64,000 nucleotides of DNA from a virus (lineage: Duplodnaviria; Caudoviricetes): the IMG/VR virus record IMGVR_UViG_3300011979_000363, positions 24,775-88,774 of that record; one strand, given 5' to 3'. A model generated the notes under the pieces. It had not been told where the DNA came from, did no database searches, and saw only the letters and a list, made by a program, of their open reading frames with translations. Position numbers and translations under genes: made by a program. Below, piece after piece: positions 3,642-36,016 of this stretch; within the stretch, counting starts at the first letter, position 1; the number at the start of each line of letters is the position of its first letter.

Positions 3642-4057
3642 TGCTTTCTGAAAGAAATTTTGGAAGGACTTTTTAGCTATTAAGGTACGTGTGTACATAT
3701 AACTATTGTGTTGCTAATGGAAAAAATGTTTACAGATTTAGTTAAAAAGTGTGAAAAACATGAGGTTTTTACACATAAATTTATACAGATTTTAACAGTT
3801 CGAGGCACCTAAAAATTGTTTAATGTTTTTACTCATGGTAAAAAATCTTTACAACTTATTTTGGGGGTGGTAAAAAGGCTGGGATGTCAGTGTTTATGCG
3901 GTCTGAGCAAAATTTCAAAATTACGTTTCACTAATGTAGGAAGTGAAACAAGGTTTTGCCGAAAATCTATATAAATGTATCGTAATACGCTGAAAATCAA
4001 TGAAAAAAGACAGGAGGGTGGGGCGGCTGGTCGGGAGTCCACACACAAAATTTTTCC

Positions 4058-4393
4058 CATTTTCAAATCCGTTTTTTGAAATCTATACAAACTGGGCATC
4101 TTTTCACCCCTTACTTTTACTCACCCCCATCTCCTATCCACTCTCAAACTTTCCACATACCTTGTTTTTCGCAATATTTGGAACGATTTTTTACCCTCTG
4201 ATAACTTGCCCACAAACGGAATTTGAAGCGAAATTTACCTACTTTCTGAGCTTCTGAGACAATCTTTACATATCCTCTACTCTATCCTAAACATCTTTCA
4301 ATATCCACCAAAAAATTCTCATTTTACCCCCTGCAAACTCTTATATATCCATTTCCCCAAAATTTTTCTGGCTCATTTTCAAATCCGTTTTTT
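4058..4393 (+). repeat. 20-bp direct repeat pair in a long non-coding region
   Basis: CATTTTCAAATCCGTTTTTT at 4058-4077 and 4374-4393. Confidence 0.85.
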
Positions 4394-4689
4394 CAATTTT
4401 CAATACTGGAGTGCTTAGCAATTCTTGTTTTCATTCTTCTACACGCTTCATCTTTGCCCAAACTCTCTAAATTTTTCCATAACTTTGAAGTTTTCCTCTC
4501 AAAAGTTACCTTATGGTTTGAAGAATTTTGAATGATGTCTTTACAAATATACTGAGAAGTTCTCTACATAAGAAGCGTCCGTAAGGACAGGGCGACAGCC
4601 ACAAAACACAAAAATCATGCTCTAAAAACATCTTTTGAACCAGCCAAATAGAAAATTTTTAGTGTTTATTGAAAAAAGTCTCGAAAAAA

Positions 4690-4721
4690 TTTGGAGGATA
4701 TTAATATTCTGAGTAACTTTG
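4690..4721 (+). promoter_or_regulatory. Bacteroidetes sigmaA promoter
   Basis: TTTG (4690-93)-N20-TAACTTTG (4714-21), perfect consensus. Confidence 0.8.
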
Positions 4722-4726
4722 CCGAT

Positions 4727-4862
4727 GTGATGATGGATTGAAGTGCTGCACATGAAATCATACGGATGAATGCTTATTTAATATAAGACATAAATATTTG
4801 CCGAAAGGCGCAAGAAATCCGCAATGGTTGCAGCACATTTACCATTGCGGACGTATTGTTTT
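4727..4862 (+). ncRNA. structured leader or small RNA with possible pseudoknot
   Basis: GCC-GAAA-GGC hairpin (4800-4809); 11-bp stem 4818-28/4841-51 whose loop TGCAGCAC is complementary to GTGCTGCA at 4743-50. Confidence 0.5.
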
Positions 4863-4909
4863 TAAGCGCTTCCACTTCTTTCCTGACTCACTTGACTATT
4901 AAAATATAG

Positions 4910-6205
4910 ATGGCCAAACATGGAGTCATAAATTTGCCTGAGCGTATTCTTATTGATGCATTCAATGAGAGAACTGCTAATAGATTGGGAGCATTAGCAA
5001 TGTCACTTTCAATCAAGGCTAACTTTGTTGACTCCAAAATCCACGACTATGTTGAAAAGCGTTACAGTACTACTTATCAAATCGGTAAGCAGACATTAAA
5101 TCGTTACATAGAGGCTGGAGAGAAGTTTGGTCTACTCGATCTTTCTGAACGCAGACGCTATTATGCTAAAGGTTCTTGTAAATCTCATCAAGATCGCCCC
5201 TGGTATGTTTCCAAAAACGGTAGGGGTACTATGGTTAAGGATTTACTTGCACCATCATTCAAAAAGGTCAGAAAAGAAAAATGTATCAAGCTTTATACCA
5301 TTGATCTGAGAGCTGAAGGTCATGGTGTATGGTTATATGTGAAAACTGATTCATACGATTATAAGGCAAAAGTAGAAGCTGAATCAGGAGTTTGCCAAAG
5401 TATCAAAAACATTATTCAATTGCTGAGAGATGTCTATGTATTGCTTCTCAAACAAAATCATAACGGCTGGTGCGGACAGCATAGCAGGAGTGAGGATTCG
5501 TTGTGCAAGCAATATGTCGGGGAGTCTGAGGATGATTATCCACACGCTCCAGCACCGACTAAAGAATGCAAAAAACTGGCGGTATCGTTAGATGATAGGC
5601 TTTATGTAGGTCACATCAGCAGTTACAATGGCAAAGACAGCGTTGACAAAATTCTGAAATGTCTGGATAGTCCTCTATTCAGTAGAGGTATTCTTGTACG
5701 TACACTGAAAGACATGCATGAGCGTGGCTTAATCCAGTGTGTAATCAACTATCTACTTATCAAAGATTTCTCCAATCTGAAAAAGGCTGAAGGCAAACCT
5801 GTAAGCATAAAGGATTGCCCTTATGACGATCCTATCAAAAAATGCATTTGGGAAAGTTCTCAGTCTTGCTTCAACGACTACATGGCCGTAGCAAATCAAA
5901 GAAGAGAATATCTTAACGTCTATGATGACAAATCAGGACGCTTCTTATTTAATCTTATGGATTCTGGAAGGTGTTGGTTTGGTAGAGGTGAAGACAATGA
6001 AGACTGCTGCTATATTAGATTAGCAAACTCTTATCGTTGTACTTCATATCTGAGAGGTATTGATAGACGTGAGTTTAGAAGAACTTCCAGTAAGACTTCT
6101 ACAACTACATCTACAAAGACTCCCAATAGAGTTATAGATGGCTCAAGAGAGAATCCCCTAACGGGAGTTGTGGCACAGCCTGCTGAGGTCTTTTGTAGAG
6201 CTTAA
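4910..6205 (+). CDS. hypothetical protein, possible wHTH replication initiator
   Basis: 431-aa ORF; N-terminal HTH-like segment (YQIGKQTLNRYIEAGEKFGLL); adjacent to a long non-coding block. Confidence 0.5.
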   Translation: MAKHGVINLPERILIDAFNERTANRLGALAMSLSIKANFVDSKIHDYVEKRYSTTYQIGKQTLNRYIEAGEKFGLLDLSERRRYYAKGSCKSHQDRPWYVSKNGRGTMVKDLLAPSFKKVRKEKCIKLYTIDLRAEGHGVWLYVKTDSYDYKAKVEAESGVCQSIKNIIQLLRDVYVLLLKQNHNGWCGQHSRSEDSLCKQYVGESEDDYPHAPAPTKECKKLAVSLDDRLYVGHISSYNGKDSVDKILKCLDSPLFSRGILVRTLKDMHERGLIQCVINYLLIKDFSNLKKAEGKPVSIKDCPYDDPIKKCIWESSQSCFNDYMAVANQRREYLNVYDDKSGRFLFNLMDSGRCWFGRGEDNEDCCYIRLANSYRCTSYLRGIDRREFRRTSSKTSTTTSTKTPNRVIDGSRENPLTGVVAQPAEVFCRA

Positions 6206-24313: not shown

Positions 24314-24814
24314 ATGGAACAAGTTTTGAATCCGACAAACGGCGTACAGCCAGAGCAGAACGCAAGTAAGCCTACGACTGGCGGTATAAATTTCTCAAAC
24401 CTCTCAGAAGCTGATAATGCTTCTAAGACACTCGCTAATGACAATGCAGAAATTCAGTCAGATGGTGTTGAGCTTTCTGATGATGTCCGTGCTGCTATTT
24501 CTCAGAAGATTGCTTCTCTTAAGGCTGAGAAGAAAGTCAAGCGAGTGTTCGTTATCGTAGTGCAGGGCGATACTGAGGTAGGTGAGCTTCCTTATTACAT
24601 TGGCTATTTCCGTCGTCCCAATCTTATGGAGTTCTCTCAGTACATGAGCTTTATCCAGAAGGACGCAGTGCAGGCCAATCAGATGTTGGCTACTCAGATT
24701 TTCCTTGATGGCAATCGTGAGCTTGTTGACGATCAGGATATTTTCTTGTACGGCACTATGCAGCAGCTTGGCCACGTCATTGATACACGTAATACGGAGC
24801 TGGTAAAAAAATAG
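24314..24814 (+). CDS. tail assembly chaperone (G-like)
   Basis: 166 aa after the tube gene; ends GTA AAA AAA TAG. Confidence 0.75.
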   Translation: MEQVLNPTNGVQPEQNASKPTTGGINFSNLSEADNASKTLANDNAEIQSDGVELSDDVRAAISQKIASLKAEKKVKRVFVIVVQGDTEVGELPYYIGYFRRPNLMEFSQYMSFIQKDAVQANQMLATQIFLDGNRELVDDQDIFLYGTMQQLGHVIDTRNTELVKK

Positions 24815-32400: not shown

Positions 32401-32661
32401 ACAGGCGGAGGCTCTGGTGCTGGAAATGGTAACAATCAGAAAGATTATGCTTCTACTTATGACAGAGGTGCTGCACGTCCTACGCAGGTCAATATTACTA
32501 TAGATAGTCTTTGCAGATTTGATCGTACTATGATTGCTAAGAATGCTGATGAGAAAGAGATAATAGAAATGATAGAAAACAAACTTGGAGAGGCAATCTC
32601 TATGTTGGCTTCATCAGCCTTGAATACAGCTGGGACGGTAATTCAACAAGGATTGAACTAA
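26401..32661 (+). CDS. tail tape measure protein
   Basis: 2086 aa; TP901-like core (TKFTAPQVAGAARFMAMAGL...TLF/MFGVLGNSGIQASSAGT); Gly-rich linker near the C-terminus. Confidence 0.92.
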   Translation: MADTKIYRVEYQIAANDAASAVFEKMARAAKNSVAPINSMLTGIGNFSQQVAKINENDSLKNLMALKPQFNETEWKKSLDSLITIARNKATELKGTFSKPLQDLIPKEGGSKAFNDLKKQYDDLTKSFNEFKKAASKPVLGTTTSGIASQVKTETDALKKLEQEQESLIAKREDINKRYANAKAEYAKAVGAFNSKAGKLSPQFGLVSKDPTLYSAQTKGDWEPLFQNATKAKEEFTSLLKQKKEVDEAIEKANKNLINARKEAESGGGKSSPAIAASTGKSAAKTVEATTSVEEINKRTAALNNLLETVNKLKSQFKFTADINTAPAIAKINDLLHLVRDNAVTIPITFGGTGINPRKAIDEATGKISEEGRRAADEANSIINQGKNRSKKQVKSSEPTLIQRIQDQIAEVQKTMPTIPLKFSVSDGGSLQTKVNEIVKSIKPAPIKVDVIPVNATKSAEGLKNVPKKTKGGESLGKITKNISEEYSRLQKYANEKPIIVRSIFNGSQAQFDLSVLIHRLQKYANELPVIARSVFNGSEAKFNLSLTLHELQRYAESYPVVISTKLANPKTDINKLLSNKQKYDVPVNVKLKAIGISKASINKLIPKDKKYDIPVNVKFNSTTAAKRFNTLIKNIKGKAAIEVKLKVNTNGIAKKVRDSIKNIKTEIPLKLTSKGASSSLNKVLLRLQEIANKKPIVIKTELNSGKAIEGLTTTIERLQRAVNNLNKNAALQTQNRMAKMAASEEPAVVTPVQRRVNEFVAGGGSKIYGKGSNADYYTRLRAWAYPFTGNTSFGATTPAALSMMKDMGSMMAVGSFMGAIGSGLHQAIDYQNTMKTVQAILQTSDDHYNIGAFNNMQRIVRNVGKETKFTAPQVAGAARFMAMAGLNTRDISNAIRPVADVALIGDTDLATTADKLTNVMTTFGLKSSQMRTIADIMTSTFTRSNTDMMMLAESAKYAGGIAHLYGGKDFMKTFSDTMAMFGVLGNSGIQASSAGTTIRMMYQNLMQPNKNQRETLQKYGIYTRDKNGQPLQMVDILKELAAKVPRDQMADAVGKMFRITAQPGAAALATHIYDLVGNPATGKKGLIEANREAMGTDVSGHIADQKKMTLSGLMYQVQSAFGEGILQAVEGRQKQWADLLKRLTKFISSPQTIEGLSKIVDLVEYLGKTMLGFVKIWVKGYTMFPNFINSLLKAQMIFTQIGYLFTPFVQMVGTLRTLLTMIPGVKRIGGGAGVSSLLGVGALSTGGAIAYSNNGGRYTEGERAMFAMMGAQATTPTAELLAAKDKKWRYEVARDRLRNSVMYHGERTAVSPLWYAPMAQFGINKDENPAEWKKSYVDSRQWMKERSMFAATNIEARQAAARRAQESVERQQSIINAERAKMAEMQSKRFALMRSMRRPAQLANVELMARYANMAGDTALVASVMPDFKSKALRDSSFAKRLVMSGNKNFAKIGWSAAFKGSLERGFNAGSVGFINGIKRMFTSAGSLIKNFAFTLLRGLSTAIGFLVSPIGLATTALVGLTAAGVYFYNKVKKWKEQTINNANDYGKTIINNARKQKQHLDNITGRNNLPNFQGGSIDDNGSTIAGGSSRKAKLVAIKDINWEKANKAQTQVDKIFQNNIFGFSNGLEKYRNMKPKSTYNSVDDLSSRGGAFTLWYHLFGGEKDVREKENTDAAANRERNNLIVKGANAPETIKAQNEIIALRKKYIAGQINYASFQKKAEKIINSAINTKGALNADNYSFGEIRRSNPKRFIQYQKSALNVLQAELKGDAGTLSGYYDAQAALRKGIPAFTSKWTSAIRRLLGGMTFELQTATKTVHITMNTLPNGKFDFNNILAQIRQKVAGFKGTIVNFAKMVANVYSYLASNGFIGKYYKDARKYVYDQIKNRSISYGEAAAYFDKNIGKGNGRATWNGMNRHQYATYVSSGKNNKAAKERVRIRKNTADAAVDPIVANLKRQQAQAKALASSANNAVTPKGGSGKGGKATGNGGTGGTGGGSGTGGGSGAGNGNNQKDYASTYDRGAARPTQVNITIDSLCRFDRTMIAKNADEKEIIEMIENKLGEAISMLASSALNTAGTVIQQGLN

Positions 32662-32682
32662 AGGAACTTTTCTTTATTGATT

Positions 32683-32708
32683 GGGGATGGTAAAAATATT
32701 ACCACCCC
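32683..32708. terminator. hairpin between tape measure gene and antisense insert
   Basis: GGGGATGGTAA-aaata-TTACCACCCC between convergent stop codons. Confidence 0.65.
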
Positions 32709-32718
32709 CTATATAGTT

Positions 32719-33390
32719 TTAGATTTCACCCATCCAAACAGTTGGTCTGCCTTGTCCTTGTTGATTTTGATAATCGCATAAAGCTTTCAAAAATTCAGTC
32801 CATTCATTGCCGGTGAATTCAGTGATACCATTTTGCTTCACGTATGACATAAACAACTTAATATCTTTCATCTCTCCTGCAATGTCATCATCAGACATAA
32901 TATTTGTATTGAATCCAGATTTATTAAGTATTTTCACAGTCTCTGCCGGAAGTTTTATAAGTCCACGGCTACTATAGATAACGGCTTTTGTATCTGATGT
33001 AGTCTTAACGACTACCGTAAAAGTCACTGGATGGCTTATTAACTTTCCGTTGATTTTAACCAGATTGCTGGCACTGACAAGGCATGTATCTACTTTTGGC
33101 GATTTATATGTCAACTTAACTTTGGTTATTGTCATGTTACCCATCGTATCGTAATCTGAGACTGTTTCAATATTACCACCACGGAAGAAATAGTCGGGAT
33201 AATATATCTCAGCACTGTCATTGTAATTGATAGAATATTTGATAAAATTCTGGACGCACTCTTTGGATAAGTATATGGGGTCTGAATTTTTCACTGCATT
33301 ATAAACAAAATAAACAATTATGAACAAAGATACAGTAATTGTAATGGCACCATAAATATACCATGCTACTTTTGATTTTTTCTTTTCCAT
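32719..33390 (-). CDS. membrane-anchored hypothetical protein (moron-like)
   Basis: basic N-terminus plus one TM helix (VAWYIYGAITITVSLFIIVYFVY), then a soluble domain. Confidence 0.8.
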   Translation of the reverse strand: MEKKKSKVAWYIYGAITITVSLFIIVYFVYNAVKNSDPIYLSKECVQNFIKYSINYNDSAEIYYPDYFFRGGNIETVSDYDTMGNMTITKVKLTYKSPKVDTCLVSASNLVKINGKLISHPVTFTVVVKTTSDTKAVIYSSRGLIKLPAETVKILNKSGFNTNIMSDDDIAGEMKDIKLFMSYVKQNGITEFTGNEWTEFLKALCDYQNQQGQGRPTVWMGEI

Positions 33391-33406
33391 TGTGATGATG
33401 ATTAAT

Positions 33407-33505
33407 TTAGATAATGTTGATTATAGATGCTATAGATTTTATAGATGCTATAGTTTTCATAGATGCCATAGATCTTATAGATGCTATAGATTTTATAGCT
33501 GCCAT
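33407..33505 (-). CDS. candidate 32-aa repeat micropeptide
   Basis: MAAIKSIASIRSMASMKTIASIKSIASIINII; ATG 5 nt after the upstream stop, preceded by AAAAACT. Confidence 0.45.
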   Translation of the reverse strand: MAAIKSIASIRSMASMKTIASIKSIASIINII

Positions 33506-33511
33506 AGTTTT
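33422..33511. repeat. tandem repeat, 5 x 18 bp (10 x 9 bp)
   Basis: units such as TATAGATGCTATAGATTT starting at 33422, 33440, 33458, 33476, 33494. Confidence 0.9.
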
Positions 33512-33909
33512 TAATAACGTTTTGGCTGTCCGCCCATTGGTGTATAGATTATTCTTATGAAGTCATTATAAGGAACGGGATGTCCTGTTGATTTATAATG
33601 AGGGGTATGTCCTTTTGATTTAGGAGATGTATGTATGTCGTTTTTGTTGACATGGTTGTTGCCGAAGGCATGTATTGCCTCTTTCCGCCTTTTCATACAT
33701 TCCTTATGCGTAATCTCGATCCAAGTATCAATTGGAAGTTGACTTACTTTTTTGATCTTGTATTTGTGTCTACGAGCAAGTAACAATAACCATTTATAGC
33801 CTCTTTTGAAGGAGATTATACGTTTAATCTCCTCGGACATTTGCTGAGGAGTCAGTTTTTTGTCATTGTTCTTTGATGACATCTGCTTATTATGATAAGG
33901 CTTCGACAA
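33511..33909 (-). CDS. highly basic hypothetical protein
   Basis: 132 aa, Lys/Arg/His-rich, ends IRIIYTPMGGQPKRY. Confidence 0.7.
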   Translation of the reverse strand: MSKPYHNKQMSSKNNDKKLTPQQMSEEIKRIISFKRGYKWLLLLARRHKYKIKKVSQLPIDTWIEITHKECMKRRKEAIHAFGNNHVNKNDIHTSPKSKGHTPHYKSTGHPVPYNDFIRIIYTPMGGQPKRY

Positions 33910-34084
33910 AACGCTTAAATTTTGATTGTTTTCTATTTTTGGTATAGTTATTCATCTGAGAAGTTTCAAGCGAAATTTGCTACACTTCTGACTTAACTGA
34001 GGAATGTTTCATCTTCATTGTATAGACTTTTGTTAATGTATTCAGTATTGTTGTCTTATGTATGTTAGAGAACATCTAATTATG

Positions 34085-34860
34085 TCTTGACAGAAAGCTG
34101 GGGAAAGATAGGAACTTCCAGGCGATGCTTTCTGAGCCAATTAGCCCTACCCAGGTGTTATCCTGAGTAGGTTAAGCTCTTTGGGCATAATCTCCATAGA
34201 AGACTTCCCCGCGATACTGCCCATCAACCATGTGACAGGCCTGCTTCCAGTATGATCGCTACGATCATCGACTCTGTTTGTCAAACTCACCAGAGTTAGT
34301 GAGGCATCGGAAAGTTGATTCCGCCAGACCACCTGCCTCACCTCACGCCAAGCTGTATCGCTTTGAGTGGCGTGAGCCATTAGCTGCTCATGTCTGGATC
34401 CCCTAAGCTCTCGGACGTAGTTGAGTGTCTTATGTGCTCATTACCGGCAACTACCTTAAAGCGCATTTCTGCGGTTGTGGGTGTCCTGCGTTGCGTGTCG
34501 TAGCCTTGGCTTCTACACCTTATCTGGCTCGTACACTTGTTAAGATCCGTAATCCCACCAGGATTTTTCGTCCATGACTGCTTTACCTATTTGTCAACGT
34601 CGTTGCTTTTTCCGGGTGCTTATTATGCACCAAAGAATATGATCCATGACTTTCAGCTTTACAATGATTCGCCCAACCCAAGCAGTCGTAATGCTCATCA
34701 AGGACTTTTCATAAGGGGAAAAATAAAAACCACATTCAGCGCTGACAAGTTCCCTCTCAATTGTCGGCTGTCCTGAATGCGGTTTCTCTATATGTTTGTG
34801 CCTTTCGGCGAAGAGAATTCAGAATGGACACTCCGAGAGGGATACGTTGTGCCATCATGT
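34085..34860 (-). ncRNA. candidate large structured ncRNA (~775 nt)
   Basis: about 50% GC versus about 28% in sampled flanking lines; no credible ORF; at least ten helices; perfect sigmaA promoter immediately upstream on the minus strand. Confidence 0.7.
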
Positions 34861-34864
34861 GCTA

Positions 34865-34896
34865 CAAAGTTACACATTTATCTGTTATGTTCCAAA
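34865..34896 (-). promoter_or_regulatory. Bacteroidetes sigmaA promoter driving the antisense insert
   Basis: minus strand TTTG (34896-93)-N20-TAACTTTG (34872-65). Confidence 0.85.
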
Positions 34897-34950
34897 TTTT
34901 TATGCCATGTTTTAGTTCTAATTAACATTTTTGTATTTTTCACTTGGAAG

Positions 34951-34962
34951 ACTATTATATTA
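34951..34962 (+). promoter_or_regulatory. ACTATT upstream motif restarting the baseplate operon
   Basis: ACTATTATATTA, 25 nt before the ATG at 34976. Confidence 0.55.
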
Positions 34963-34975
34963 AAAAGAAAAGTAT

Positions 34976-36016
34976 ATGAGTCTGATTTTCACAAGAGCAG
35001 CTGGAATCGGTATCGGAACTGCTATTGGAGCAGGTGTTGGTACACTTGAAAGTAAGCTGGGGGGCGCGAGCAGTGGAGATGTAAAATTTTATTACATGTC
35101 CAGTGCTGGTGGTAAAGTTATTAATGTCATAGCAAGAAAAGCTGCTCAGATAGCTGCCGGTATTGCTAAAGATGAAGTGGACAGTCTTATCCATAAAGGA
35201 GCTGATGCCTTACGTAAGTTGATTGGCGGTAACAAATCGAAGAATGGTGTCCGTGGAGCAACTTGGGCTGAATCTGCTGCTGAAAAGGCAAGAGAAGAGC
35301 AGAGCAAGTATGGTCAGCTGCATGATGTCAGTGCCTACGACGATTATGGAAATGTGTGCTATGAATCAGTTATGTTAGCCATTCCTATAACACCAGCTAT
35401 CAGTCACAGTGCTTTGACTTATTGTGGAGATGCTTTGCCCGACGGTACGAATGGGAAAAGAACTGTTACAAATAATTGGCTTGTGTGGTATGATACCGTT
35501 GGCTTGGTCAATGTATCATCGGATAAGAATGTCGTGTTGACTCAAGTAGCTGGACGAGACTACAGTCGTAAAGAATTGGTCAGTAATGGTGATGTCAAAT
35601 TTTCTGTTACTGGGCATATTACCTCTTCCCTACCCGATTGTTATCCTAATGAGGAAGTTCAGAAGTTTCGTGAGATCATGCGTTATCGTGGTATTGTAGA
35701 AGTAAACAATGTCATTTTTGACCAATGGGGCATTAAATATGTTGTCATTACTGGTTTCAACATGCCTACTCAGGAAGGCAGTAAATCCGTGCAAGACTAT
35801 TCGTTTGAGTGTGTAGGCATCCAGCCGGATGAAGAGGCTAATGTCACAGAAGATGCTATTCAGGTGCATGACCTCGATCGCAGTGTGGCTTCTCCCAGTA
35901 AGAAAGGCGGTTGGGTTGACATGCTTAAGAACACTGCCATTGGTGCTGTCAGTTCTATGGAAGATATGGCCACGCAGGGCACGGCTTTGGCTACTGGAAT
36001 GTTGAATAAGTTATAA
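34976..36016 (+). CDS. tail tube initiator / baseplate protein (DUF6046-like)
   Basis: SVSSDKNVVLTQVAGRDYSRKELVSNGD..FSVTG.I....D.YP.EEVQ pattern; first tail gene after the tape measure. Confidence 0.65.
   Translation: MSLIFTRAAGIGIGTAIGAGVGTLESKLGGASSGDVKFYYMSSAGGKVINVIARKAAQIAAGIAKDEVDSLIHKGADALRKLIGGNKSKNGVRGATWAESAAEKAREEQSKYGQLHDVSAYDDYGNVCYESVMLAIPITPAISHSALTYCGDALPDGTNGKRTVTNNWLVWYDTVGLVNVSSDKNVVLTQVAGRDYSRKELVSNGDVKFSVTGHITSSLPDCYPNEEVQKFREIMRYRGIVEVNNVIFDQWGIKYVVITGFNMPTQEGSKSVQDYSFECVGIQPDEEANVTEDAIQVHDLDRSVASPSKKGGWVDMLKNTAIGAVSSMEDMATQGTALATGMLNKL

Follow-up and report, generated by a model that had tools for sequence, protein, structure and literature searches.

A conserved, structured non-coding RNA of ~770 nucleotides (nt) is encoded on the minus strand at positions 34095-34860 of the window, by which we mean the whole 64,000-nt stretch of DNA analysed here, positions 24,775 to 88,774 of the 88.8-kb IMG/VR provirus record IMGVR_UViG_3300011979_000363. 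We refer to this RNA as type A. It is the first part of a ~2.2-kb unit, the cassette, that lies between two genes of the phage tail module: the tape-measure gene (plus strand, 2086 amino acids (aa)) ends at 32661, and the next plus-strand gene, encoding a DUF6046 baseplate-hub protein, occupies 34976-36016. All credible features between these two genes lie on the minus strand. An earlier note on this DNA had proposed a large and complex minus-strand RNA behind a host-type promoter, and the relatives, the covariation and the promoter described below bear that proposal out.

The RNA region has little room for a protein. The longest open reading frame (ORF) in 34085-34860 is 77-79 aa, without a family match, in line with the earlier reading that the first ~775 nt hold no credible ORF, and insertions and deletions among relatives are not multiples of three. 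The G+C content is 0.42-0.54 in 34100-34800 compared with 0.25-0.385 in 33200-34100, a real contrast, although a milder one than the 50 versus 28% first put forward. Relative to shuffled sequences, the minimum-energy z-score is -3.7 for the minus strand and -1.5 for the plus strand. The conserved core (34095-34745, minus; ~650 nt), supported by nhmmer homologues, RNAalifold and pair counts, contains at least 19 helices, among them the long-range helix 34680-87/34576-83, and its invariant blocks include CCUUGAUGAGC, GGCGAAUCAUUGUAA, CAUGGNCGAANAAUCC, GGAUUACGGAUCUU and CGCARGACACC. The ~115 nt that follow the promoter (34746-34860, minus) fold into a lineage-variable 5' hairpin region, which includes the 12-bp stem 34728-39/34773-84 and the GAAA-capped stem 34800-09 and can be aligned among close relatives only.

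Upstream of the RNA lies a Bacteroides-type promoter (34865-34896, minus), with the -33 element TTTG at 34896-34893, a 20-nt spacer and the -7 element TAACTTTG at 34872-34865, from which transcription would start near 34858. These elements fit the -33/-7 consensus of Bacteroides promoters. The host promoter previously claimed at 34865-96 is thus retained, as one of Bacteroides type, and its position is conserved: the -7 element is kept in seven of seven aligned relatives, and the -33 element with its 20-nt spacer in most of them. The pattern TTTG-N19-21-TAnnTTTG occurs 8 times in the window, compared with 1.3 (1.29) expected, and in a single copy in the cassette. Its seven other matches are at 622, 4690, 5367 (minus), 10423, 13761 (minus), 24182 and 55969; the eight sites form a candidate map of the host-type promoters of this prophage. 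Relatives of the hub protein are present in Bacteroides, Porphyromonadaceae, Muribaculaceae and Prevotella genomes, and we therefore infer that the host is a member of the Bacteroidales.

Covariation and strand of the type A RNA

The RNA has homologues, and the compensatory changes among them exceed those in slid and shuffled controls and recur in a held-out sequence, so the proposal stood up to this check. Contigs encoding hub proteins 51-100% identical to that of the window were collected, and iterated nhmmer runs on them recovered type A RNA in six further phage lineages, in the relatives L004, L006, L110, L116, L014, L106/L107 and L108/L109, at identities to the window that range from 98% (L004) down to ~51%. 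RNAalifold on seven sequences yielded 102 consensus pairs in 19 helices. Standard pairs are found in 95% of cells, compared with 37-41% when the 3' partner is slid by 1-3 columns; both sides have changed at 49 pairs, compared with 5-10 in the slid controls; and the observed pairing values are reached by none of 500 shuffles. Because the structure was derived from the same sequences, two further controls were added. Column-shuffled and refolded alignments gave 21 double-change pairs (maximum 31), compared with 57 observed. In L116, which was held out and unused for the structure, 84% of testable pairs form (36-50% when slid), with 17 double changes relative to the window compared with 0-2 in controls.

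The same alignments bear on the strand. In several helices, one-sided exchanges from G-U to A-U or G-C fit the minus strand only, and we assign the RNA to that strand because these exchanges are tolerable only there and because the promoter is conserved. Ten helices had been proposed earlier. Five are recovered with compensatory changes (34573-82/34680-89, 34615-31, 34417-23/34448-54, 34342-50/34368-76 and 34146-71). A sixth, 34286-303, shares positions with the 3' arm (34299-34305) of a consensus helix whose other arm is 34335-34341 and in which six pairs are compensatory. The remaining four (34252-68, 34091-98/34127-34, 34728-39/34773-84 and the GAAA cap) fall in lineage-variable parts.

The small ORFs of 77-79 aa, and blocks of the form UGAUGAG...CGAAA that superficially resemble a hammerhead, could suggest a protein gene in decay, or what remains of a mobile ribozyme or intron, with helices that arise by chance. 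A hammerhead core consists of CUGANGA and GAAA, with stems I-III around the cleavage site. Here, the corresponding block is UUGAUGAG, in which U replaces the invariant C3; the supposed loop of stem III is paired with a distal strand and covaries with it (helix 6); and there is no Rfam hammerhead match. We rejected a hammerhead on these grounds. A non-functional origin in general is opposed by compensatory changes far above all three controls, by the outcome of the held-out test on L116, by the lack of a Pfam match and of an Rfam intron or ribozyme match at E values up to 10, and by the intergenic position of the RNA behind a promoter of its own. We consider such an origin very improbable, and a decayed gene or chance structure practically excluded.

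Exchange of the RNA in a fixed slot

In L007-L009 and L013, type A is replaced by a different ORF-poor structured block of ~950 nt, which we refer to as type B and which lies in the same place on the minus strand (3762-4684 in L007; 3680-4645 in L013). The block is 72% identical between L007-L009 and L013, and the type B cassettes have the same design and the same protein family (see below) as the type A cassettes. Between L007 (type B) and L108 (type A), the promoter and 5' hairpin region and the basic-protein gene are 85-89% identical and the centres are unrelated. The same pattern recurs between L013 (type B) and L106 (type A) at the 5' flank, comprising promoter and leader (86% identical), and the 5' hairpin region is common to such sister cassettes of types A and B at 86-89% identity. 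Type B has 42 double-change pairs compared with 19.7 (maximum 31) in column shuffles, and a consensus energy much lower than that of column shuffles, both from two sequences only. When the best-conserved subdomain of type A was used as a covariance model, it found no counterpart in type B, nor in the L027 and L101/L102 units described below. At the level of sequence, this amounts to a modular replacement of type A by an unrelated large RNA.

Type A or type B occupies this slot in 9/9 lineages examined that have a hub protein at least 51% identical to that of the window. Among 80 IMG/VR relatives with a hub identity of 46% or less, the tape-measure and hub genes are mostly ~110-150 nt apart, and in some of these relatives the slot contains only a reverse-strand lipoprotein gene or other small genes. 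Because all lineages at 51% or more carry the unit and most relatives at 46% or less are without it, it is an insertion that became fixed in one subclade. Judged by this distribution, the insert is a fixed feature of a phage subclade and not an oddity of the phage in the window.

Phage morons, of which lambda and HK97-like phages provide examples, are units of promoter, gene and terminator inserted between conserved late genes. The cassette has its own host-type promoter and a closing hairpin, runs in the opposite orientation to its neighbours, lies between conserved late genes, is missing in most relatives at 46% hub identity or less and has a variable cargo that includes lipoproteins, all of which resemble a moron. 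It differs in that its first 'gene' is a structured RNA of 0.65-0.95 kb and in that the unit is fixed across the subclade, not sporadic. The locus points to an accessory slot that is conserved in the tail module of a gut phage lineage and could be mined for exclusion or defence cargo.

Two other units were observed. In L027, a more distant relative, the same slot holds a ~960-nt ORF-free stretch (4043-5000, minus; fold z-score -3.8), followed by the gene for a 253-aa protein with a C-terminal half that looks RNase HI-like by eye; no PMGG-tail protein (defined below) is encoded. The L027 unit may be a third kind of RNA cassette. The other unit is at L101:1150-1870 (minus) and in L102, prophage-bearing contigs of two Bacteroidales metagenome-assembled genomes, and is ~19 kb from the hub gene (positions compared in one contig, G001). 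It comprises a Bacteroides-type promoter, a U-run hairpin, ~600 nt of ORF-poor, G+C-rich sequence and a small membrane-protein gene, and shares only a weak match of ~50 nt with type A.

A family of basic proteins encoded with both RNAs

An all-against-all protein comparison identified one or two very basic proteins in every RNA-bearing cassette examined. In the window, the gene is at 33511-33909 (minus) and encodes 132 aa from a TTG start, or 123 aa from the ATG at 33882 used by gene callers. The 132-aa protein has an isoelectric point (pI) of 10.2 and a tail rich in Lys, Arg and His that ends in IIYTPMGGQPKRY; its AlphaFold model has a confident three-helix domain (residues 21-84) followed by this tail, which is disordered. 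A 27-bp tandem repeat (33566-33622, minus; 2.1 copies) lies inside the gene, and the length of the disordered tail appears to vary with repeat copy number, because L004 has one extra 27-bp unit (a 9-aa insertion).

Members of the family have a pI of 9.9-10.5 and consist of 17-28% Lys plus Arg. The only part common to them is at the C terminus, where a hydrophobic strand leads into S-[IV]-P-[MF]-G-G-[QM]-N-K-[RH]-[YH] and the stop codon. This peptide is found in 11 proteins in 8 cassettes, and we call them PMGG-tail proteins after it. The codons for the peptide differ synonymously, with all four Pro codons and four Ser codons in use, so that selection acts on it as protein. A profile search with the family retrieved 19 clusters only among 1.84 billion representatives, and nearly all of those retrieved end in the peptide. 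Pfam, NCBIfam, PHROGs and PDB sequences contain no match to the family. For the structure of the 132-aa protein, ESM Atlas scores were 0.79 or less, Foldseek returned nothing at E values up to 0.001, and the best VIA-align Z of 5.0 is generic for a helical model. By these searches, the family appears to be new. Avd, a four-helix-bundle domain encoded beside the reverse transcriptase of diversity-generating retroelements, was considered for the 132-aa protein and rejected, given three helices with a disordered tail and no Pfam or NCBIfam match.

Possible role of the RNA

We favour, and give an even chance to, the explanation that type A is a functional non-coding RNA that acts with the basic proteins in a conflict role expressed in the lysogen. 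A subclade of Bacteroidales tailed prophages would keep a 2.2-kb moron-style accessory transcription unit, reversed, between the tape-measure and baseplate-hub genes. In the lysogen, a single Bacteroides-type promoter would give rise to a transcript with type A RNA as its first ~770 nt, and this RNA would be either cut out of the cassette transcript or active as its 5' part. It would act together with the co-encoded Lys/Arg-rich proteins, the disordered tails of which, ending in strand-P-M-G-G-x-N-K-R-Y, may become ordered on nucleic acid, and lipoproteins and membrane proteins would be swappable cargo. The arena is likely to be phage-phage or phage-host conflict. We favour a non-coding RNA module because the junction sequences are conserved above the neighbouring proteins, because the RNA is independent of the identity and distance of the next gene, and because the protein family persists while other cargo turns over.

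Several points weigh against this explanation. About eight distinct type A sequences are available, all from one phage subclade, so the pair statistics rest on few independent events. The fold of the 132-aa protein has no RNA-binding signature. The basic protein had been put forward earlier as the partner of the RNA; a family member does accompany the RNA in every cassette examined, but the same subfamily follows unrelated RNAs, and because the 85% identical proteins L108_111 and L007_112 follow type A and type B, respectively, the proteins cannot be specific for the variable RNA cores. Finally, the cassette has a single promoter and no terminator separates the RNA from the ORFs, so that the RNA could simply be a 5' leader.

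This last point opens a rival explanation, a lesser although serious possibility, in which the RNA acts in cis as an unusually long structured 5' untranslated region that sets the level, timing or stability of the cargo transcript, through 5'-end protection, a termination-resistant RNA polymerase working against the late operon, or the sensing of a signal. One promoter serves the whole cassette, without a terminator-like site before the ORFs, and in another Bacteroidales prophage cassette a promoter is followed by ~650 nt of ORF-poor structured sequence and then by a membrane-protein gene. However, known leaders come nowhere near a length of ~650-950 nt, at least 19 helices and invariant junction blocks, and the RNA core is more conserved than the flanking proteins. 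Neither the distance to the first ORF nor the identity of this ORF is conserved: the AT-rich spacer that separates them (33910-34094, minus, without a terminator-like site on that strand) varies in length from ~110 to 300 nt across the relatives, and L004 has an additional gene at this place, so that a different gene follows a 98% identical RNA. Furthermore, two unrelated RNAs have been exchanged in place while the 5' hairpin region and the genes stayed.

A bolder explanation, which we hold tentatively and judge somewhat unlikely, is that types A and B, and perhaps the L027 form, are an interchangeable new class of large Bacteroidales phage RNAs that assemble with PMGG-tail proteins, or with themselves, into trans-acting particles during lysogeny, for example for superinfection immunity or counter-defence. 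If true, this ornate phage RNA would be the first to combine a dedicated protein partner, linked to it genetically, with alternative 'alleles' at a single locus.

Relation to known RNAs

To our knowledge, only a handful of bacterial and phage RNAs are this large and complex (rRNAs, RNase P RNA, group I/II introns, OLE, GOLLD, ROOL, raiA and HEARO), and each new one has opened new biochemistry. The earlier note could not match the RNA to any family, and covariance-model searches of Rfam, with GOLLD, ROOL, OLE, HEARO, introns and RNase P among the models, agree. With Rfam 15, there was no match at the gathering score in the window or in seven relatives, and none worth considering at E values up to 10 in 32600-35000 or in the type B region; this holds for the individual models of GOLLD, ROOL and OLE, none of which matched in the window or the seven relatives, or at E values up to 10 in 32600-35000. 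In the window, ARAGORN detected neither tRNA nor tmRNA genes, and there is no Rfam match to RNase P RNA. A HEARO RNA or a guide RNA of IscB or TnpB was rejected, as no Rfam match was found; no ORF or Pfam match for an IscB, TnpB or HNH nuclease is present in any cassette. A group I or II intron was likewise rejected: there was no match at E values up to 10, and the RNA, which is situated in antisense orientation between genes and behind a promoter of its own, is not an intron.

Searches elsewhere were similarly negative. No type A homologue was found in GenBank phages by DNA or by protein; IMG/VR gave no match by RNA motif pattern or by protein motif, and single-protein scans of it were empty; and in JGI metagenomes, two motif-pattern matches were found, neither supported by nhmmer. 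Among Bacteroidales species genomes, 401 searched by DNA gave short weak matches only, and 151 searched with a 111-position covariance model gave none. The first 200 supplementary files of PMC8040213 do not contain two of the invariant type A motifs, and full-text literature searches found no description of the RNA. Complementarity of its 12-mers to other transcripts of the window is limited to four scattered matches, none in conserved blocks. As far as these comparisons reach, type A belongs to no catalogued family. It falls in a known kind, that of large ornate phage-borne RNAs of unknown function, and is set apart from that kind by its host group, its linked protein family and its two exchangeable forms.

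The closest comparison is with ROOL (659 nt) and GOLLD (>800 nt), which are unrelated to each other, have a common context and both form cages, as seen by cryo-electron microscopy (PMC12286853). The likeness lies in the phage setting, the promoter, the size (~650-950 nt) and the many covarying helices of the RNA, and in two unrelated RNAs, here types A and B, in the same genomic context. The differences are that types A and B have no sequence or structure match to ROOL or GOLLD, have Bacteroidales hosts, are accompanied by constant genes for small basic proteins and lie antisense at a set place in the tail module. Types A and B could nevertheless be RNA-only machines, analogues of ROOL and GOLLD that self-assemble into multimers, with the basic proteins as neighbouring cargo: their sizes (~650-770 and ~950 nt) and phage setting are similar (PMC12286853), and the protein subfamily does not track RNA type. 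We think this quite unlikely, given that at least one PMGG-tail protein is retained in each of the type A and B cassettes examined, whereas the remaining cargo changes, and that there are no tRNA genes nearby, unlike at many ROOL and GOLLD loci. Compared with ROOL and GOLLD, this locus offers more experimental handles, namely a defined promoter, a compact cassette, constant companion proteins with a sharply conserved C-terminal peptide and a natural swap of two unrelated RNAs between cassettes that are otherwise nearly identical, and because of these the function of the RNA can be tested by deletion, module exchange and pull-down in Bacteroides lysogens.

The OLE ribonucleoprotein of Bacillota consists of OLE RNA with OapA, OapB, OapC and bS21. 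As in OLE, a large conserved RNA lies beside genes for dedicated small proteins. The proteins here are unrelated to those of OLE, and a phage accessory unit contrasts with a chromosomal stress locus. The membrane protein of the window is not conserved with the RNA, and hence there appears to be no OapA-like anchor. Small basic proteins have been proposed among the partners of OLE as well (PMC12054373).

Cargo and ends of the cassette

The membrane protein just mentioned has 223 aa, one N-terminal transmembrane helix and no family match (32719-33390, minus). None of the other RNA cassettes compared encodes a counterpart, and L004, with its 98% identical RNA, does not have the protein; because it is not conserved with the RNA, we regard it as lineage-specific cargo and not as a core partner. 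The suggestion, by analogy to OLE, that it anchors a ribonucleoprotein is not upheld by this distribution.

The closing hairpin noted earlier at 32683-708 is present, with a stem of 10-11 bp (32683-32708) between the convergent stop codons of the tape-measure and 223-aa genes, and is likely to be a two-way transcription stop. A terminator scan did not report it, since it lacks a U-run after it on the minus strand, and the scan found no terminator-like sites on that strand inside the unit.

An 18-bp tandem array (33421-33513, minus; 5.2 copies), previously taken to encode a repeat micropeptide, is instead seen to be what is left, after amplification, of the start of a lipoprotein gene, which relatives have in intact form. 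In the last units of the array, 24 bases (ATGAAAACTATAGCATCTATAATC) equal the start of the intact lipoprotein gene of L014 (signal peptide MKTIASI...); the first codons of such a gene appear to have been amplified and then ended by a stop. In ToxIN-like type III toxin-antitoxin systems, a tandem RNA repeat array directly precedes an endoribonuclease toxin gene. This candidate was rejected for the array, given its origin in a lipoprotein gene start and a downstream protein that is a membrane protein without a family match.

Lipoprotein-like proteins of ~190-200 aa, with a signal peptide and Cys, are the commonest cargo at the tape-measure end of the slot, and the family, which has no Pfam match, is likely to be an exclusion-type moron. 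Its genes are at L014:2167-2730, L106:1080-1646, L013:2456-3022, L015:4279-4884 and L016:4269-4877 (all minus), and in L015 and L016 this same family, the source of the array, provides the sole reverse gene in the slot.

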